Source: a virus (taxonomy: Duplodnaviria > Heunggongvirae > Uroviricota > Caudoviricetes). Taken from it: a stretch of 26,180 nt of DNA. The stretch is taken from the IMG/VR virus record IMGVR_UViG_2698536580_000004, positions 1 to 26,180 of that record; one strand, written 5' to 3'. The position numbers were made by a program, and so were the translations under genes. Position 1 is the first letter of the stretch. The number at the start of each line of letters is the position of its first letter. This document shows positions 2,832 to 17,020 of this stretch, one piece after another. A model generated the notes under the pieces. The model had not been told where the DNA came from, did not search any database, and saw nothing but the letters and a program-made list of their open reading frames with translations.

Positions 2832-5489
2832 ATGAATGCCACAATACAGCAGGACGTTGTGCGCCGGCTCGTTCAGGATTTTGAATTTAAAGAACGGGAT
2901 AAATATTTGCAGCAGGGCGTTTGCCCTAAATGCCATAAACGCGAATTATTCACCAGTATAGAAAAGCCCTGGATACTGAAGTGCGGCCGTGAAAACAACT
3001 GCGGCCATCAGGTCGTTGTCAAAGAGCAGTATCCTGAAATCTTTGAGGACTGGTCTAAGCGGTACCAGGACACCCCTGAAACCCCACATGCCGCTGCTGA
3101 GGCGTACCTGCGTGAGGCGCGGGGGCTGGATACTGAACCGCTAAAAGGTTGCTTTACTCAGGGCGCGTTCGTGAAGGATGGCATGGGGTCGGCAACGGTC
3201 AGATTTTCGCTGTCATGCGGTGCAACATGGGAGCGCATCATTGACCAGCCGCAGCGCTTTGGTAAGCAGAAAGCGAACATCAGAGGCAGCTATGTTGGTC
3301 ACTGGTGGGTTCCGCCTTCTGTGAACCTGCTGGAAGTGGATGAAATCTGGATCACTGAGGGAATCTTCAACGCACTGAGTCTGTGCCAGGCAGGGTTTCC
3401 TGCAGTTGCCACACTGAGCAGTAACAACTATCCGCTGGCCGCACTGGATTCGCTGGCCAAAGAACTGGGTGAAAAACCACGTCCACGTCTTGTATGGGCG
3501 TTTGACGGCGATAAAGCCGGCACAAAGCACACGCTGGCGTTCGCTGCCCGTAGTGATGCTGCAGGATGGAAAACCCGTGCCGCGCAGCCGGTGAAATCAT
3601 CGGCATCGCTGGACTGGAATGACCTGTTGTTACGTAACCGGTTCAGTAAGTCGGACATTAAAAATTATCGCTACTATGGCGATCTCCTTCTGGCAAAAAG
3701 CCCGACTGAGAAAGCCCTTCTTATGCATCAGCACAATGAATGGCACTCGTTTTATTTCGAACATGGTTCCCGCATGTACTGGTTTGAGCTGGATCTGGAC
3801 AGGTACATGCGAGCCTATGAGCGCATCACCAATACCGGTACCGAAGTGGTGATGGAGTGGGAGGCAAAAGAACGGGCGGTTAAAGAGTCAGGCGGTGTGA
3901 CCGAAATTGCCAACTGCTGGCTGACGCCGCTTTATTTCCAGCGGTCTGAACCTACAGACGAGTCCTGGTATTACGTGAAGGTCAGTATGCCGAACCGGCC
4001 AGCCGTGAAAGATACTTTTACGGCTAATCAGCTCACCAGTTCCGCCGAGTTCAAAAAGCGTCTTCTGCATATCGCCAAGGGGGCGGTGTATACCGGCAGT
4101 ACCAAACAGCTGGATAAGTTCATCCAGATGCGCCTCCCTGAAATCAAAGAAGTTAAGACGCAGAATTTCATTGGATACAACAAAGATTATGCCGCCTGGC
4201 TATTTAACCGTGTGGCCGTGTGTGATGGCCGGCTGTATGAGATGAACGACGAGGATTATTTCGAAATCAACAGCGCCAGCGTTAAGAGCCTGAGCCTCAC
4301 GCCGGCGCTGGATCTGAATCCGAAGCTGAACGAATTCACCACGGGCTGGGTTGACGATATCTGGACAGCGTTTGGTGAAAAAGGGTATGTGGCGCTGGCG
4401 TTCTGGCTGGGGTCGCTGTTCGCTGAGCAAATCCGGGAGCGTGACAAGTCATTTCCGTTTCTGGAAATCGTGGGCGAGCCGGGGACAGGTAAATCCACGC
4501 TGATAGAATTTCTCTGGAAGCTCGCCGGCCGTGAGGAATACGAAGGGTTTGATCCTTCTAAATCAACAGCCGCAGCGCGTGGACGCAACTTTGCCCAGGT
4601 TGGCAACCTTCCGGTTGTGCTGATTGAGGGCGACCGCACCACGGATAACGCTAAACAACGCGCTTTTGACTGGGACGAGCTGAAATCACTGTATAACGGT
4701 CGTGCCTCCCGTGCCGTGGGTATCAAATCGAACAATAACGAGACGTATGAGCCGCCATTCAGGGGAAGCATTGTGATAGCGCAAAATGCCGACACAGACG
4801 GCAGCAAGGCCTTTCTGGAGCGTATCATCCACATCTATACCGACAAGCGCGGCCAGTCCATTCAGACCCGCTACGCCGCCGAACGGCTTGAACAGATACC
4901 CGTTAGTCAGGTATCCGGGTTCACACTGCTGGCCACCATGCGTGAAAAAGAAATCATGAAGGTGTTCGGTCAGGGCTACGAACGCGCCCGTAGTGAGCTG
5001 GAGTCCAATACCAGTATTCGCCATATTCGTATCGCCAAAAACCACGCGCAACTGGTTGGTCTGCTGGATGCGCTGGCGTTGGTTGTACCAGTACCGATGG
5101 AACGTATTGAGAAGACCCGCGATGCAATTACCGCGCTGGCCGTGGAACGGTGTCAGGCGCTTAAAAAGGATCACCCTCTGGTGCAGGAATTCTGGGAGCT
5201 GTTTGATTACCTGGATGAACTTGCACCTTATGGCATCAATCATTCATCAGATGAAAATGAAATCGCGGTTAACTTCAATCACATGGAAGAGGTAGCCGCA
5301 GCACACCGGCAGCGTATTCCGTTCACATTAACGGAAATTAAAAAGCTGCTTAAAAACGGTAATGAACGGCGGTTCATCAGACAAAGTACCACGCGCAGCG
5401 CGGTAAGTGAGCGCCATAATCGTGGTAAAGGGGATATGCAACGGATGCCGGAAACATTCCGCTGCTGGATATTTAATAGAGAAAAGTAG
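2832..5489 (+). CDS. replication primase-helicase (zinc ribbon + TOPRIM + P-loop NTPase; P4 alpha-like architecture)
   Basis: 885 aa. N-terminal CPKCHKRE...LKCGRENNCGH zinc ribbon; TOPRIM-like WITEG (Glu) and WAFDGDKAG (DxD); Walker A GEPGTGKST followed by VVLIEGD. Confidence 0.75.
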   Translation: MNATIQQDVVRRLVQDFEFKERDKYLQQGVCPKCHKRELFTSIEKPWILKCGRENNCGHQVVVKEQYPEIFEDWSKRYQDTPETPHAAAEAYLREARGLDTEPLKGCFTQGAFVKDGMGSATVRFSLSCGATWERIIDQPQRFGKQKANIRGSYVGHWWVPPSVNLLEVDEIWITEGIFNALSLCQAGFPAVATLSSNNYPLAALDSLAKELGEKPRPRLVWAFDGDKAGTKHTLAFAARSDAAGWKTRAAQPVKSSASLDWNDLLLRNRFSKSDIKNYRYYGDLLLAKSPTEKALLMHQHNEWHSFYFEHGSRMYWFELDLDRYMRAYERITNTGTEVVMEWEAKERAVKESGGVTEIANCWLTPLYFQRSEPTDESWYYVKVSMPNRPAVKDTFTANQLTSSAEFKKRLLHIAKGAVYTGSTKQLDKFIQMRLPEIKEVKTQNFIGYNKDYAAWLFNRVAVCDGRLYEMNDEDYFEINSASVKSLSLTPALDLNPKLNEFTTGWVDDIWTAFGEKGYVALAFWLGSLFAEQIRERDKSFPFLEIVGEPGTGKSTLIEFLWKLAGREEYEGFDPSKSTAAARGRNFAQVGNLPVVLIEGDRTTDNAKQRAFDWDELKSLYNGRASRAVGIKSNNNETYEPPFRGSIVIAQNADTDGSKAFLERIIHIYTDKRGQSIQTRYAAERLEQIPVSQVSGFTLLATMREKEIMKVFGQGYERARSELESNTSIRHIRIAKNHAQLVGLLDALALVVPVPMERIEKTRDAITALAVERCQALKKDHPLVQEFWELFDYLDELAPYGINHSSDENEIAVNFNHMEEVAAAHRQRIPFTLTEIKKLLKNGNERRFIRQSTTRSAVSERHNRGKGDMQRMPETFRCWIFNREK

Positions 5490-5520
5490 GAGGAAAGTTC
5501 TATGTGTGATTGCTTAAAAC

Positions 5521-5778
5521 ATGTCGGTAATGCAGTTAAAACTCGTCTGCTTGAAAAAAGTACCTGAAGGAGCGGAAGTATTTGAGGGATTCGAGACGGG
5601 GTGGGATAACTCTGTATTTTTTCTTTCTAGTGGTCGTATTCATGTAAATATGCGCTATAAGATGGCATTCAGGGCGAAAAAGAAAAATGGTGACATGGCA
5701 AAGAACCTTACTCATCTGGAGTGCAGTGTTGCGATGGCATATTGCCCGTTTTGTGGTGAAAAAGAGAACGCCTTATGA
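5521..5778 (+). CDS. hypothetical small protein (coding status uncertain)
   Basis: 85-aa ORF in the AT-rich segment after the primase gene; no SD at its ATG; contains a T-rich low-complexity stretch; C-terminal CPFCGE. May instead be non-coding (possible cos region). Confidence 0.3.
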   Translation: MSVMQLKLVCLKKVPEGAEVFEGFETGWDNSVFFLSSGRIHVNMRYKMAFRAKKKNGDMAKNLTHLECSVAMAYCPFCGEKENAL

Positions 5779-6026
5779 AACAGGATTATTATTCGTATGA
5801 GGAATTGCTGATGGGGATGTTTAATATCGGTGATGAACTTTATGAAACGACTGATTTTGATGAACTGACGATGGAACATTTTGAAGTCAGTTTTGAGCAG
5901 TTTGCTAATATTGTCGATGCCTTATTGCCATTTACAGCTTTGGTTTGCTCTCCTTTAAGTGGAAGAAATTATCACGCATTTCTTAAAGATGGCATTGCCT
6001 TTATTAAGACTGAGGCCAGTGTGTAA
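5775..6026 (+). CDS. hypothetical small acidic protein
   Basis: 83-aa ORF, ATG overlaps the stop of the upstream ORF (ATGA); followed immediately by a terminator hairpin. Confidence 0.4.
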   Translation: MKQDYYSYEELLMGMFNIGDELYETTDFDELTMEHFEVSFEQFANIVDALLPFTALVCSPLSGRNYHAFLKDGIAFIKTEASV

Positions 6027-6032
6027 AAAGTA

Positions 6033-6055
6033 AGGCACCAGTTGGTGCCTTTTTC
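6033..6055. terminator. bidirectional rho-independent terminator between convergent genes
   Basis: Hairpin AGGCACC-AGTT-GGTGCCT (6033-6050) followed by TTTTC on the plus strand and preceded by AAAAAG (T-run on the minus strand); sits between the stops of convergent genes. Confidence 0.7.
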
Positions 6056-6384
6056 TAAGCAGCTGCTGTGCCGTCCTGACTTAAAAACTTGAGCATCAGC
6101 TGTTTTTGCTGCATATCAAGGCTGTTGCAGATAGTGGCGATCAACGCATCGCAGGATTTGGCGCTGGGGCTGATGGTATGTGAGAATGTCATATTCATCA
6201 CAAAAGTGTGACCACATTCAACATCGGTACACGCACAATATAAATCCGACAGTTCCTTGTGTTTTCGGGCTGTTTTTTTGATAACAGCCCTTGCCTCACA
6301 TACCGGACAGTAAACCTTCATTACCCGCATATCCATCGCTCCGGAAGTTGGAAAACGATGATATTTTAGCCTTTTTGCGGACAT
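6055..6384 (-). CDS. ogr: Ogr/Delta-like zinc-finger late-gene transcriptional activator (extended)
   Basis: CPVC-x20-CAC-x4-C with HTF after the last Cys, matching the P2 Ogr four-Cys arrangement; 109 aa as called, possible internal starts (MDMRV or MKVY); first ATG overlaps the portal stop (TAATG). Confidence 0.65.
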   Translation of the reverse strand: MSAKRLKYHRFPTSGAMDMRVMKVYCPVCEARAVIKKTARKHKELSDLYCACTDVECGHTFVMNMTFSHTISPSAKSCDALIATICNSLDMQQKQLMLKFLSQDGTAAA

Positions 6385-7403
6385 TAATCACCTTCCAGCT
6401 CACTGTCTTTCAGGAAATTAAGGTACAGGTGGGGCGGTACATCACTTTCCTGTTCCACTGCGGCGGTAAACATGCGCTGAATGGGCAAAATCTCTGCTTT
6501 GCGGTAGGTTTTGGCCGCTTTCTCAACATCTCCCATTACTGCGCCGTTCGTCGGGATAATCCCCGCCAGTCCTGCCGGGAATCGATGCGCGGTCAGTACG
6601 TCCTGGGCGCTGATGCTCTTGATGTTCTGAAACTCATCTTTGGCGCTGATATCACCAATCGGGATAAATTTGATGCCGTCCGGATCGCCTTTGGGGATGT
6701 TCACAAACATGGTGCTGAAGTTCCCGATCCCCTTTGACTGCTCCAGCTTCTGAATAATTTCTTCTTCCACTTCATCAGTCATATTTGGGTCGTTACAGTA
6801 GATCATACCACCTGTGTGTCCGCCGTTATGGTAGTAACGCCGACGAAAAATTGTTGCCTCACCGTTAAGCAGGGCAGAATGGATACCGCTGATATAATCT
6901 GGCAGACCATAAATCGCCTGTTGCGGATCGTACTGCCTGAGAAAAATAATATCTTCAGGCGGATAAATCATCGGTTCACCCTGCTGCAGTACCACAAACT
7001 CCCCGGTCTTACGCTGGCGGGTATAGAGTGCCGGCAGCGGGTACAGTGCCACCACATCCCCCCAGCCGTTACGCACTTTCAGAATGGCCACATCACCGAA
7101 GGTCAGCCAGTCGAACACGGCTGCACCAAGCTGTTCATGCGTCAGTCCGCCGTCTTTATAGTTTGCCGTCACCATATTGCGACGGGCATACAGCACACCG
7201 CCGTGCTGCGCGTTCAGGTTCACCAGTTGCGCCAGCGCCAGCCGGTCAATCGGGAGCGTCCAGTGTTCCGCTTCATTGTCATACCAGACGTCTGTGTAGT
7301 TTGTGCCGGTCGTCAGAATGGGTTCCGGTTTACCCAGGGTAATAAGGCTCATATGGCGCGGCTTGCTGGCGGTGCGGCGTTCCCTGTATTTCCGTTTTTT
7401 CAT
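6384..7403 (-). CDS. Q: portal vertex protein (P2 gpQ-like)
   Basis: 339 aa; block YGLPDY...LLNGEATIFRRRYY...DGIKFIP...KDEFQNIK is typical of P2 Q portal proteins; adjacent to and co-oriented with the large terminase. Confidence 0.85.
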   Translation of the reverse strand: MKKRKYRERRTASKPRHMSLITLGKPEPILTTGTNYTDVWYDNEAEHWTLPIDRLALAQLVNLNAQHGGVLYARRNMVTANYKDGGLTHEQLGAAVFDWLTFGDVAILKVRNGWGDVVALYPLPALYTRQRKTGEFVVLQQGEPMIYPPEDIIFLRQYDPQQAIYGLPDYISGIHSALLNGEATIFRRRYYHNGGHTGGMIYCNDPNMTDEVEEEIIQKLEQSKGIGNFSTMFVNIPKGDPDGIKFIPIGDISAKDEFQNIKSISAQDVLTAHRFPAGLAGIIPTNGAVMGDVEKAAKTYRKAEILPIQRMFTAAVEQESDVPPHLYLNFLKDSELEGD

Positions 7404-9181
7404 GCTGCTTTCCCTAAGTTACCCCAGCGTGATTTTCGCTGGTTTTCAAAGTTTAATGGCTCGTTGTCAATGGCATGGGCGATAGCCCAGAAACTGTCAG
7501 CGTGGCCGGTTTCTGCTGTACGGTCAGCGACAAACGTCATGGCGTTACCGCTGGCTGTGGACGTGCGGCGGATAGTCATAAAACTGGCGGCAATTTCGGT
7601 TTTTTCCTTATCCCATTCCACACGGCCATCTTCGATAACGTCGATCATCTTCATCACCAGGCGATTTTTCGTCTCCACGCCATAGCGGATAGGCACCGCC
7701 TGACGCATGGCGAAGTGCTGCACATCCTCAAAGACCCCGCTCCCCAGTCCGGTAATATCAATGCCGATGTAAGTCATGTTGTACTGACCAAACAGCTTTT
7801 TGATTTGTGCCGCCTGCCACTTCCAGTTCATCCCCTGCCAGTGAAATACACGCAGCACACGAAATTTTTCGCCGGCCACTATCGGCGGCGCGATAATCAC
7901 AAAGGTGGAGGTGTCACCGCTACGAGCCGGATCATAGCCCGCCCACACTTCACGATTGCCGAACGGCCGGGGCAGGTTTTCGTCATGATCCTCCCAGATA
8001 TCCGGATCAACACAGCAGCGTTCCACGTGAGAGAACGAAAATACGCTGTCCTTGCTGTCCACGAACACGCACATATACAGCATGTTGAAAGTGTCGCGGT
8101 TGTAGCGGTTGCGCAGTTTCCCGATGCTGGCGAGATTAAACCCGCCTGCGATCGCGTCTTCCATCGTGATGATGTAGCGCCACTGACCATCAGGACATAA
8201 CCGTCCACCGTCACGCAGCTCCTTCTCCGTGGGAAATTGTACGCGTGCACGTTTTTTGTCACCGCGCTTCCATTCTTCACCTGTCCAGAACGGGTATGCC
8301 TGGTGCGTTTTGCTGCTGGGGGTGGAAAAGTAGGTGGTTCGCCATTTGTCGTGTGTGGCCATCGCGCTGGCCACTTCGTTTAATTTTGCAAAGTTGGGTA
8401 CCCAGAAATATTCATCGCAGTACAGATGGCCGCTGTATGACTGGGCGGTGTTCTTGTTGGTGGACAGGAATCGCAGCTCCGCGCCGTTGGAGAGGCGGAT
8501 GGGGTTTCCTGTCAGCTCCACGCCGAAATACTGCTCCGCAATGTTGACGATATAGCTGCGGAATACTTCAGCCTGAGCCTTTGATGCAGACAGGAAGATT
8601 TGCGGATCGCCTGTCATTACCGCATTCTCAAAGGCTTCTATTGAGAAATACCAGGTTGCACCAATCTGGCGGCTTTTCAGGATGTTCCTGATTTGCTGAT
8701 GAAGATTAGCGCGAAGGTGTTTCTGGTAGCCGAAAAGGTGCTCCAGCGCGAACCGGTCAAAATCTTCCTGTGTCAGCCCGCTGATGTCGTTCTTTTTGTA
8801 CTTGCCACGTTTCCGGGACTTTTCGTCGCCACCGGACTGGCGCGCCGGCGCATCATTTTCACTGTGTTTAATTTCTGCCAGCTTTTCCTGATGCTTATTG
8901 TGCTGTGCACGTAGTTTCACCAGGTGAGAAACGAGACTGTCCAGCTCCCGCAGCTCCAGCTCCGATTTCCCTTCACGTAATGTCAGTGACTGAATGCGAC
9001 GGTTTAATGCATCTTCGGTGGATTCATGACTGAGTAATTCCGCCCAGCAATATTTCTCCGCCCAGTAATAGACAATGCGTCTGTTAGGCAGATTAAGTTC
9101 GCTGGCAATTTCCTGCGGGGTATAGCGTTTTAAATAAAGCGCCCGCGCAACGCCTTTTAATTCTTCTGAATATTTAGCCAT
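7400..9181 (-). CDS. P: terminase large (ATPase) subunit (P2 gpP-like)
   Basis: ~593 aa; size and position match P2 gpP; overlaps the portal start. Track start at 9196 is GTG; first ATG is at 9181 (MAKYSEEL). Neither has a clear SD. Confidence 0.8.
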   Translation of the reverse strand: MAKYSEELKGVARALYLKRYTPQEIASELNLPNRRIVYYWAEKYCWAELLSHESTEDALNRRIQSLTLREGKSELELRELDSLVSHLVKLRAQHNKHQEKLAEIKHSENDAPARQSGGDEKSRKRGKYKKNDISGLTQEDFDRFALEHLFGYQKHLRANLHQQIRNILKSRQIGATWYFSIEAFENAVMTGDPQIFLSASKAQAEVFRSYIVNIAEQYFGVELTGNPIRLSNGAELRFLSTNKNTAQSYSGHLYCDEYFWVPNFAKLNEVASAMATHDKWRTTYFSTPSSKTHQAYPFWTGEEWKRGDKKRARVQFPTEKELRDGGRLCPDGQWRYIITMEDAIAGGFNLASIGKLRNRYNRDTFNMLYMCVFVDSKDSVFSFSHVERCCVDPDIWEDHDENLPRPFGNREVWAGYDPARSGDTSTFVIIAPPIVAGEKFRVLRVFHWQGMNWKWQAAQIKKLFGQYNMTYIGIDITGLGSGVFEDVQHFAMRQAVPIRYGVETKNRLVMKMIDVIEDGRVEWDKEKTEIAASFMTIRRTSTASGNAMTFVADRTAETGHADSFWAIAHAIDNEPLNFENQRKSRWGNLGKAA

Positions 9182-9324
9182 GCACACATTATGCACGGGC
9201 GTTTGTATATTAAATCCCGCTTTATTTCTGATGTGTTCGGCTAATAGCCTATATCCGAAATGAAGTGAATGCGGCGGTTAATTTTATTGGCGATACTGAA
9301 AACCGCAGCATGAACGGAGGCAAT
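9182..9324. promoter_or_regulatory. divergent late promoter region (terminase/portal leftward, capsid operon rightward)
   Basis: Only sizeable non-coding gap between divergent late operons; AT-rich. No canonical TGT-N12-ACA Ogr box found by eye. Confidence 0.4.
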
Positions 9325-10164
9325 ATGTCAGGTTCACAACTGGCAACAAACTGGATTTGTATCGCCACTGCGGGTGAAACGGTTGATAAGCGATTTATTG
9401 AAGAACAATGGTTGCTTGATGCCGCTGAATTATATGACCCCTCTTTGTATACCGCGCTGTTATGGCCGGAACATTCCCGTAATTTCGGGAATATGGGGGA
9501 GGTGCTGGAAGTAAAAGCCGAGCGAGATGATGAAGGTATTCTTCGTTTATATGCCCGCCTCTGTCCGGCGATTTCATTGCTACAGGCAAATGCAGACGGT
9601 CAGCTTTTATTTTTATCACCGGAGTTTACACCGGACGGCAATTTCAGAAATACCGGGAAAACCTATCTTGAGGGACTGGCCATTACTGACAGTCCGGCCG
9701 GGGTAAGCACCACACGGTTACGTTTCAGCCGCACCAGGGGAAAACGCATCGGACCATACAAGCCGCTGGCGTTTGATGAAGTCAGGGAATTTAAAAAGGA
9801 AAAGGGAATGTCAAAGACAGCGAAAAAGGGCTGGCGCCATTTTTTCAGTATCGAAGAACCGGAGCAGACCCCGGAGCAGGAACCTTCACAGTCTGATGCC
9901 TTACAGGCGCTGGCTGAAGCGCTGGATGCCATTGATAAGCGCGTATCTGCTATTGAAACCCGTCTGGGTGAGGCGGAAGAAGCGGTATCTGATGTGCAGG
10001 ACGATGTGGACACAGTGAAGGAAGTGGTGGACACCGAAGATTTTGCGCGTCTGGTGGGGAACCTGCCGGAGCTGGTGAAAAACTTCAGCAAGCTGAATAA
10101 CAAAGTTACTCAACTGCCGGACAAGAAATTCAGCAAGGGCAAAAAAGGCTTCAATTTCCTGTAA
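9325..10164 (+). CDS. O: capsid scaffolding protein (P2 gpO-like)
   Basis: Track ORF starts at GTG 9265; ATG at 9325 (MSGSQL) has GGAGG 5 nt upstream, giving ~279 aa (P2 gpO is ~284 aa). Acidic C-terminal half; position before the major capsid gene. Confidence 0.75.
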   Translation: MSGSQLATNWICIATAGETVDKRFIEEQWLLDAAELYDPSLYTALLWPEHSRNFGNMGEVLEVKAERDDEGILRLYARLCPAISLLQANADGQLLFLSPEFTPDGNFRNTGKTYLEGLAITDSPAGVSTTRLRFSRTRGKRIGPYKPLAFDEVREFKKEKGMSKTAKKGWRHFFSIEEPEQTPEQEPSQSDALQALAEALDAIDKRVSAIETRLGEAEEAVSDVQDDVDTVKEVVDTEDFARLVGNLPELVKNFSKLNNKVTQLPDKKFSKGKKGFNFL

Positions 10165-11936: not shown

Positions 11937-11952
11937 TCTACGGGAGTTTGAT

Positions 11953-12144
11953 ATGTCGTTTAAGCATGAGTTAGGCCAGGTTGTTGAAGTTTCCATTAGC
12001 GGCGAAGAGGGGCATATCAAAGCCCGTGCGGAGTACACCAACAGCTGCAATCAGTATCTGATCCACTATCAGACTGCTGACGGTCGCGCATCTGATGCGT
12101 GGTTTGAAGAAGGTGAGATTCAGGCCGCAAAACGCGGCGAGTAA
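11953..12144 (+). CDS. hypothetical 63-aa protein
   Basis: Short ORF with a GGGAG SD inserted between the small terminase and head completion genes; no motif recognised. Confidence 0.4.
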   Translation: MSFKHELGQVVEVSISGEEGHIKARAEYTNSCNQYLIHYQTADGRASDAWFEEGEIQAAKRGE

Positions 12145-12157
12145 GACTACCGACCCG

Positions 12158-12224
12158 AAAGCGGGCGCGGTGGAGGGGATCGCATAAGCGTATCGCCCGT
12201 GGAAACCGGCCAGCCCGCTTTTTT
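12158..12224 (+). terminator. structured element / possible attenuator or terminator before head completion gene
   Basis: GCGGGC (12161-12166) pairs with GCCCGC (12213-12218), followed by TTTTTT (12219-12224); the ~46-nt intervening GC-rich loop may fold further. Confidence 0.35.
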
Positions 12225-15458: not shown

Positions 15459-15755
15459 ATGCAGGAGTACGAAAAGGGGTTCATTGCACTGGCAGTCATG
15501 GGGGCGCTGATTGCGCTGGGTAAATTGCTTAACAGTGATGAACCGATCACCCTTCGTCTGGTGGCGGGGCGTGTCATTGTGGGCAGCGGGCTGTCACTGA
15601 TTGCCGGGGTGGCGCTGTACTTTGTCCCGGATATTCACCCGCTCGCATTAGCCGGATTTGGCTCTGCGCTGGGTATCCTGGGGCAGAATGCGGTGGAAGC
15701 CTGGCTGCGTAAGCGGGGTTTTACAGGGATTTTTGATAAAGGGACAGGGAAATGA
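15459..15755 (+). CDS. holin (three predicted TM segments, charged C-terminus)
   Basis: 98 aa with hydrophobic segments FIALAVMGALIALGKLL, VIVGSGLSLIAGVALYFV, LALAGFGSALGILG and basic tail RKRGF; immediately upstream of the endolysin. Confidence 0.6.
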   Translation: MQEYEKGFIALAVMGALIALGKLLNSDEPITLRLVAGRVIVGSGLSLIAGVALYFVPDIHPLALAGFGSALGILGQNAVEAWLRKRGFTGIFDKGTGK

Positions 15756-16829: not shown

Positions 16830-17020
16830 CAAAACGAGTCCGGGCAATTGAACAGAACGGACTCGAACAGTATTTAATTTTACGTCGCCATTATTTACCA
16901 CACGGTCAGGATTCCGTGGATGATATTTCCGCTGCCATCTGGCTGGATAATCGCCACTGGGAAAATATGCGAATAGCGGTTGCTAACGGAATCAGCACTG
17001 CATTTAAAGGCACGGAATGA
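16572..17020 (+). CDS. tail assembly chaperone, -1 frameshift-extended form (shift at 16820-16826)
   Basis: After a -1 slip on A_AAA_AAC the frame from 16826 is open for 64 codons (LTKRVRAIEQNG...AFKGTE) and stops at TGA 17018-17020, overlapping the tape measure ATG 17017. Confidence 0.5.
16820..16826 (+). other. candidate -1 programmed ribosomal frameshift slippery heptamer A_AAA_AAC
   Basis: X_XXY_YYZ heptamer directly before the chaperone stop codon; the -1 frame is open to the tape measure start. Confidence 0.5.

Follow-up and report, generated by a model that had tools for sequence, protein, structure and literature searches.

An Ogr/Delta-type zinc-finger gene coupled to the portal gene of a P2-like prophage: two conserved starts, a putative internal promoter and a candidate operator

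The window analyzed here, 26,180 nucleotides (nt) of virus record IMGVR_UViG_2698536580_000004, is an ESSI-2/K139-type P2-like prophage, with Salmonella as its probable host, and carries on its minus strand a zinc-finger gene of the Ogr/Delta family that begins at the stop codon of the portal gene. We found that the gene has two conserved start codons, the first overlapping the portal stop and the second at codon 19, and that the stretch between them holds, in addition to an open reading frame (ORF), conserved DNA motifs that match an annotated promoter element of phage P2. We lean toward a two-route model, judged from sequence comparison, in which a promoter of the gene's own would give a 91-amino-acid (aa) form and the late transcript of the terminase (P) and portal (Q) genes would give a coupled 109-aa form. 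The gene and its position are not new, given a published comparison of phage K139, an annotated 99%-identical protein of Salmonella enterica ("ogr/Delta-like zinc finger family protein," 109 aa) and the occurrence of the exact protein beside portal genes. As an already annotated gene of a known family, in the usual place for its phage group, it is ordinary. What may be new are the dual starts, the promoter embedded in the extension and a noncanonical operator serving a single control region. The principle is not, since it is already known from P2 that an Ogr-type activator reinforces its own synthesis from a late operon.

A zinc-finger gene attached to the portal gene

6055..6384, minus strand: zinc-finger gene, long ORF of 109 aa, Ogr/Delta-type; the exact protein is called as 109 aa adjoining the portal gene in NCBI assemblies
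6172..6309, minus strand: zinc-ribbon domain, residues 26-71, from PF04606, the P2 Ogr alignment and an AlphaFold2 (AF2) model
6384..7403, minus strand: portal gene, gpQ-like, 339 aa (Pfam Phage_portal, E=5e-16)
6387..6396, minus strand: Shine-Dalgarno (SD)-like GGAAGGTGAT serving the coupled start M1, within the final portal codons
6331..6381, minus strand: N-terminal extension, codons 2-18, basic, predicted to be disordered, with its frame kept open
6032..6051, minus strand: intrinsic terminator-like hairpin with an 8-bp stem, 5 GC pairs and a T-rich tail, at the end of the leftward unit of P, Q and the zinc-finger gene

The Pfam family Ogr_Delta (PF04606) matches residues 26-71 of the protein (E=1.1e-15, 57.7 bits against a cut-off of 26.3) and is covered from profile position 2 to position 47 of 47. 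An earlier note on this DNA, made from the sequence, had described a clear four-cysteine finger of Ogr type, and the pattern is as it described: C26-P-V-C29, 20 residues, C50-A-C52, 4 residues, C57 and then G-H-T-F. It had also set the 109 aa of the ORF against about 72 aa for P2 Ogr, which is correct for both proteins. When the two were aligned with BLASTP, 38 residues matched without gaps at 26% identity, and C26, C29, C52 and C57 fell on Ogr C4, C7, C30 and C35, so that the Cys spacing, CX2CX22CX4C, is kept. This spacing has been given as the motif of the Ogr/Delta family (PMC3931495). The four residues are invariant among 32 homologues and are proposed as the zinc ligands; C50 is an additional, nonligand Cys.

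Beyond the finger, PHROG 603 ("transcriptional regulator") matches residues 1-103 (E=3.3e-37), and the similarity to this K139 orf13-like subfamily takes in the C-terminal SPSAK...QRQ(M)xLxLL part of the protein. The AF2 model has a zinc-ribbon-like core with a three-stranded sheet (predicted local distance difference test [pLDDT] score of 82-89) and two predicted C-terminal helices (pLDDT of ~80), while residues 1-20 are modeled without secondary structure at a pLDDT of ~50. A Foldseek search of the PDB returned the zinc ribbon of RNA polymerase I A12.2 as its best match, at E=0.2; there was thus no solved relative and no functional lead from structure. From family membership we infer that the product is a late-gene transcription activator. 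The Ogr/Delta family is characterized by zinc binding and by activation of transcription through the RNA polymerase alpha subunit.

The junction between the portal and zinc-finger genes reads GGAAGGTGATTAATGTCC on the minus strand. The portal stop codon TAA (6386..6384) shares one base, position 6384, with the ATG of the zinc-finger gene (6384..6382), giving the TAATG overlap that the earlier note had read. That note had placed the gene at 6055-6386; the ORF itself spans 6055..6384, and 6386 takes in the portal stop.

We compared 80 genomic loci encoding relatives, analyzed together with phage loci. A portal homologue lies upstream in 56 of them, and in ~50 of these 56 the first ATG is found exactly 25 codons ahead of the first Cys, sharing 1 nt (TAATG) or 4 nt (ATGA) with the end of the portal gene. 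The coupled loci come from more than 20 genera, and their portal proteins are 46-95% identical to that of the window. Among 30 representatives less than 90% identical, for which we computed codon conservation, the coupled ATG is conserved at 0.93-1.0. The A of this ATG is fixed even where it forms the third base of varying last portal codons. None of the 30 representatives has an in-frame stop within codons 2-18, whereas frame +2 is interrupted in 11 of 30. When the DNA motifs described below are set aside, the extension codons give a ratio of nonsynonymous to synonymous differences (pN/pS, pooled Nei-Gojobori) of 0.42, compared with 0.10 for the core; the extension evolves fast. The SD-like sequence before M1 pairs with the anti-SD sequence at -6.8 kcal/mol (mean of 49 relatives, -4.8; background, -2.05), and a GGGTG/AAGGTG sequence before the coupled start is conserved in relatives. 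On the strength of the conserved overlap, the open frame, the pN/pS value and the SD pairing, we conclude that selection acts on the coupled start and that the extension appears to be translated, which supports the earlier note's proposal of translational coupling to the portal gene.

An RNA structure or a known RNA family was rejected as the cause of the conservation of the extension: the minimum free energy (MFE) of the minus-strand RNA from 6290-6420 was no better than that of shuffled sequences (z=-0.5), and a search of Rfam with 5400-9500 gave no match at E<=1. A few loci depart from the common layout. In four Photorhabdus loci (L016, L024, L028 and L034) the portal and zinc-finger ORFs overlap by 19 nt; these loci lack the first stop, and the portal gene ends at the TAA within the conserved TAAAAT described below. 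ATA replaces the coupled ATG in Pseudocitrobacter vendiensis (L007, position 3001), where the remaining gene is intact, and TTG replaces it in Franconibacter pulveris (L040), overlapping a TGA stop.

Between the P promoter region (9181) and 6051, the scan predicts no terminator on the minus strand, so that cotranscription of the zinc-finger gene with P and Q, on the single leftward transcript that the earlier note had envisaged, is plausible. The hairpin at 6032-6051 lies in the 28-nt gap between convergent genes that end at 6026 (plus strand) and 6055 (minus strand), and has runs of T on both sides. It probably terminates transcription from both sides; the scan calls it on the minus strand only.

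A putative promoter and a second start within the extension

6055..6330, minus strand: short form, 91 aa, from M19 (ATG 6330..6328), the conserved internal start
6339..6342, minus strand: GGAG SD sequence, 8 nt before ATG19
6363..6370, minus strand: putative -10 element G-C-TAAAAT (hexamer 6368..6363, G at -14 = 6370; predicted transcript start near 6356)
Codon 5, third base G: conservation 0.90, nine different residues encoded
Codon 6, second and third bases TA: conservation 0.97, L/V/I encoded
Codon 7, AAA: conservation 0.93-0.97, mostly K encoded
Codon 8, first base T: conservation 0.97, mainly Y/F/S/L encoded

The earlier note had remarked that several internal Met codons leave the true start ambiguous, and the ambiguity is real, with Met at positions 17, 19 and 22. 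Only M19, which has an SD sequence of its own, is kept in relatives: at codon 19, all 30 representatives have ATG or, in a few cases, GTG. Codon 15 is GGA at 0.83-0.90, and the GGAG duplex has a mean energy of -5.7 kcal/mol. We rejected M17, whose codon varies widely, and M22, whose codon encodes I, L or M behind a weak SD sequence (-3.2 kcal/mol). Databases also carry calls of 86-91 aa for relatives of the protein.

Upstream of this start, the conserved bases of codons 5-8 spell G-N-TAAAAT independently of the residues encoded. Each base of the hexamer is conserved at 0.93-0.97 and the G at -14 at 0.90 among the 30 representatives. In the P2 record, the -10 element of the ogr promoter (Pogr) is annotated as TAAAATG, 34 nt before the ogr ATG; the identical hexamer TAAAAT stands 32 nt before ATG19 in the window. 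On the basis of this conservation at the DNA level, and of the match in hexamer and spacing to Pogr, we infer that 6370..6363 is the -10 box of the activator's own promoter and that GGAG/ATG19 would start the 91-aa form. Since the extension thus also holds a conserved -10 element, SD sequence and start from which 91 aa would be made, there are probably two products, of which the 109-aa form is one. The TAA within TAAAAT (6363-6368, minus strand) is also in the portal frame, five codons past the portal stop.

The region between the terminase and scaffold genes

7400..9181, minus strand: large terminase gene, gpP-like (Pfam Terminase_5/6N/6C), likely start at ATG 9181 (MAKYSEEL)
9188..9193, minus strand: (G)CATAAT, proposed -10 element of the leftward late promoter P_P, 6 nt before the terminase ATG
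9226..9230, minus strand: candidate third half-site CAGAA, ~5 nt past the dyad on the P side
9236..9259, no strand assigned: dyad TTCGGCTAATAGCCTATATCCGAA (TTCGG-N14-CCGAA), candidate and probable operator of the zinc-finger activator
9292..9297, plus strand: GATACT, -10-like element of the proposed rightward late promoter P_O, in a conserved alignment block; AATAAT in relatives

The classical target of Ogr at late promoters is TGT-N12-ACA centered near -55 (PMC3931495). In the window this pattern has 5 matches against 6.6 expected by chance, all of them intragenic and none in 9182-9324, and we rejected it as the operator here. We then aligned the 144-bp region between the terminase ATG at 9181 and the start of the scaffold (gpO homologue) gene at 9325, referred to here as the P/O region, from 37 representatives. 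A dyad, TTCGG-N13/14-CCGAA, is conserved in this alignment. Measured from the predicted transcript starts, its center is at ~-56.5 for P_O and, one helical turn further away, at ~-66.5 for P_P. C(A/C)GAA, the third half-site, is kept in the P/O alignment, in K139 and in the tail-cluster promoters of Xenorhabdus. The GCATAAT of P_P is near-invariant, there is no conserved -35 element, and ATGGCTAAATA(C/T) is kept among relatives at the terminase start. A scan of 5400-9500 for the sigma-70 consensus called no promoter in the P/O region; the proposed promoters therefore rest on conservation and not on consensus score.

The dyad at 9236..9259 is the sole exact copy in the window. The other gene boundaries that we checked, among them 11937-12198 (a gap that contains a small ORF) and 16830-17016, held no further copies. 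In K139 and Yersinia phage vB_YenM_324, too, the genome holds a single exact copy, in the P/O region, and all late genes lie on one strand behind the dyad.

Homologues found apart from portal genes bear on both the operator and the second start. At 28 loci without a portal gene upstream, in Proteus, Xenorhabdus and others, the gene begins at the equivalent of M19, with GGA or GAG at the same spot before the start as in the window. These genes lie beside a P2-type holin gene or a gpR-like tail gene. In seven Xenorhabdus loci (L047, L049, L050, L052, L058, L061 and L065) the dyad occurs ~0.3-2 kb from the stand-alone zinc-finger gene, with the same downstream layout (CAGAA, 43 nt, AATAAT). At L047, the sole Xenorhabdus locus whose flanking ORFs were examined, it lies at 5118-5141, ~100 bp upstream of a gpR-like tail gene, and in Proteus (L067 and L068) it lies between the holin and zinc-finger genes (at about 2810). 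Its co-occurrence with zinc-finger genes in these independent contexts makes the dyad the leading candidate for the operator in the K139/ESSI-2 branch of the Ogr family. The regulator-operator pair looks to have been domesticated in tailocin or lysis cassettes of Xenorhabdus and Proteus. The gpR-like tail gene at L047 is accompanied by two R_equi_Vir-family ORFs downstream, and at L071, the locus examined in Proteus, MFS and Dak genes flank a divergent P2-type holin gene. A literature search on NucC, on tailocins together with Ogr and on ESSI-2 found nothing on regulation.

With the GCATAAT ending 6 nt before ATG 9181, transcripts of the terminase gene would have little or no leader (9179-9193, minus strand). 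About half of the relatives share this layout, and the others have a 40- to 50-nt insert with an SD sequence. In K139, TATGAT is followed after 6 nt by the ATG of the P gene. The K139 record (L090, 15488-15519) annotates the -10 and -35 elements of a promoter, "P16," on top of the dyad (15489-15512); the TATGAT is more likely to be the -10 element than the annotated P16.

A model for expression, its rivals and its relatives

These observations can be combined into a model to which we give somewhat better than even chances. Following derepression, a short transcript starting near 6356 would arise from a weak promoter within the first 18 codons (6370..6363), and translation of this transcript from GGAG/ATG19 would give a 91-aa protein, the presumed ancestral form represented by the stand-alone homologues. 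This activator would bind the single dyad between the divergent terminase and scaffold operons and switch on both of the -35-less late promoters. The leftward late transcript would then continue from P and Q across the activator gene and end at the terminator at 6051..6032, and ribosomes ending the portal gene would restart at the overlapping ATG (TAATG, after AAGGTGAT), yielding the 109-aa form with its basic, disordered N-terminal tail. The result would be positive feedback of the kind provided in P2 by ogr behind the F operon (Pogr plus read-through), with the difference that here the leader would have become coding.

Several points weigh against this model. The putative internal promoter has a poor -35 element (GTGATT, 3/6), and the sigma-70 consensus scan of 5400-9500 finds no promoter at the junction of the portal and zinc-finger genes. 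As a second in-frame portal stop, the TAA of TAAAAT could explain part of the conservation of the hexamer, and A-rich codons behind a start can also be selected for efficiency of initiation. The pN/pS of 0.42 pools nonindependent pairs over few codons. The classical TGT-N12-ACA is absent from the P/O region, and the dyad occurs once per genome, so that its link to the zinc-finger protein rests on co-occurrence. A rival reading is that only the 91-aa protein is made, from M19, the upstream 54 nt being a promoter and leader that is open by chance and the ATG at the portal stop being unused. That the stand-alone homologues start at M19, that much of the conservation of the extension is at the DNA level (the -10 box and SD sequence), that AF2 finds no structure in residues 1-20, that the protein of Escherichia phage ESSI2_ev239 is annotated short and that L007 lacks ATG1 are all in keeping with this reading. 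We nevertheless consider it unlikely, because it leaves unexplained why the A of ATG1 is fixed across varying last portal codons, why stops occur in 0/30 representatives in frame but in 11/30 in frame +2, why pN/pS is 0.42 and not ~1 and why a strong SD sequence precedes M1 at a constant 25 codons from the first Cys.

The converse, that only the coupled 109-aa protein is made and that there is no internal promoter or start, also has a low probability in our estimate. TAAAAT, GGA and ATG19 would then reflect constraint on the protein or on translation, or the need for a reserve portal stop, with the initial activator supplied by read-through or by basal P_P activity. NCBI and phage annotations are mostly of 103-109 aa, the hexamer's TAA can be read in the portal frame, and the promoter scan is empty at the junction, all as such a reading would have it. 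But bases in codons 5, 6 and 8 are kept while the residues vary, for which protein constraint is a poor explanation; P2 Pogr, as annotated, has the same hexamer at a matching spacing; codon 19 is solely ATG or GTG; and an activator that depends on the promoter it activates needs another source. That the zinc-ribbon protein has a different role altogether, in Lar-like restriction alleviation, as a transposase-like DNA binder or as a repressor, seems to us very improbable. The match to the Lar restriction-alleviation family (PF14354, Lar_restr_allev; E=0.0055) scores 17.4 bits, below the cut-off of 28.6, and this assignment was rejected; "transposase-like" is found among the database names of relatives, and no solved structure matches. 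Against these hints, the protein scores twice the gathering threshold for Ogr_Delta, spaces its ligands exactly as Ogr does and is encoded in a P2-like late region, and the late promoters, which lack a -35 element, have a conserved upstream dyad at the position typical of Ogr sites.

The two-route model could be extended to the proposal that the K139/ESSI-2 branch is a distinct regulatory variant of the Ogr family, which, taken as a whole, we put forward as a speculation that is more doubtful than the model itself. Its parts would be a new operator (TTCGG-N14-CCGAA plus the third half-site), one copy of which would drive both divergent promoters and all late genes, one of these promoters giving an apparently leaderless terminase mRNA; the domestication of the regulator-operator pair in tail and lysis clusters of Xenorhabdus and Proteus; and, in enterobacterial prophages, the absorption of the activator's promoter and leader into a portal-coupled in-frame extension, with an early short and a late long isoform, possibly of differing activity.

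The relevance of these findings lies mainly in annotation and in how non-P2 Peduoviridae turn on their late genes. They would explain why gene callers disagree, at 86-91 aa or 103-109 aa, and both calls may be right. The proposed operator differs from the textbook TGT-N12-ACA, and late control by one dyad for all late genes would be very compact, which could help to predict or engineer the induction of prophages and tailocin clusters. The dual starts, the embedded promoter and the noncanonical operator are computational proposals held with moderate confidence and are of modest general interest.

Comparison with P2 brings out how much of this arrangement is shared. The earlier note had contrasted the window with P2, where it placed ogr at the opposite end of the late region near the att site. 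P2 ogr is indeed located between gene D and attP/int, but the logic is the same and not opposite, since P2 ogr, too, comes last in a late operon (F) and shares its terminator, annotated in the P2 record "for ogr transcript and F operon." Both genes stand at the 3' end of a late operon with a TAAAAT -10 element of their own, putative in the window, and a shared terminator, ogr behind gene D next to att and the window gene behind Q. The two proteins belong to the same Pfam family and share the CX2CX22CX4C spacing, whereas the window protein has in addition the 18-residue N-terminal extension coupled to the portal stop and ~17 extra C-terminal residues, with the two predicted helices. The presumed target in both phages is a dyad ~55 bp upstream of -35-less late promoters, TGT-N12-ACA in P2 and, as a candidate, TTCGG-N14-CCGAA in the window, but one region would control all late genes in the window, in contrast to four promoters in P2. 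The B protein of phage 186 and Pag of PSP3 are grouped with P2 Ogr. Delta of P4 and phiR73 has the same Pfam domain and presumed role; it is a tandem fusion of two Ogr-like domains in satellite phages, in contrast to the single domain of the window protein. Serratia NucC is a domesticated Ogr-like regulator.

Closer relatives have the gene in the same place. The ogr homologue of K139 has been placed between the portal and replication genes, as has that of Smhb1 (PMC8537503), and the gene order of P, Q and zinc-finger gene is common to vB_YenM_324, ESSI2_ev239 and K139. A position adjoining Q is normal in K139/ESSI-2-type P2-like phages. K139 orf13 (83 aa), which also has homologues in phiO18P and Kappa, is 50% identical to the window protein and occupies the same position, and K139 has the exact dyad in its P/O region, as the window does. 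Unlike in the window, a small gene, orf14, lies between Q and orf13, and orf13 starts at the equivalent of M19 without a coupled extension. The homologues in ESSI-2-like phages (gp11 of vB_YenM_324, gp26 of ESSI2_ev239 and that of Cronobacter phage ESSI-2) are 57-62% identical. Of these, gp11 has 106 aa and an annotated 4-nt ATGA overlap with the portal gene, whereas gp26 is annotated from an internal start, at 89 aa. The stand-alone homologues of Proteus and Xenorhabdus, of 86-92 aa and 50-60% identical, have the M19-equivalent start and the dyad nearby but, unlike the window gene, neither portal attachment nor N-terminal extension.

The nearest phage DNA is that of ESSI2_ev239 (Peduoviridae, Evevirus), with 81.5% identity over 82% of a query spanning 5400-7500. 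The window opens with genes for an integrase, a repressor, a Cox-like protein, an exonuclease and an 885-aa Toprim primase. After the primase, the minus strand carries the zinc-finger, portal and large terminase genes, and the plus strand carries the scaffold gene (preceded by GGAGG and identified by PHROG 73), the capsid gene and all remaining structural genes. This overall order recurs in vB_YenM_324, ESSI2_ev239 and K139. The replication module is mosaic: the window primase (2832-5489, plus strand; Toprim/DUF5906) is likewise present in ESSI2_ev239, whereas the same place is taken by a gpA-type nicking replication protein in K139 and by a gpA endonuclease of that type in vB_YenM_324 (L001, 4617-6701). 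In one NCBI assembly that encodes the identical zinc-finger protein (L085), an insertion sequence (IS)-type transposase gene (rve, HTH_38; 2898-4049) is inserted directly downstream of the zinc-finger gene, between it and small convergent ORFs.

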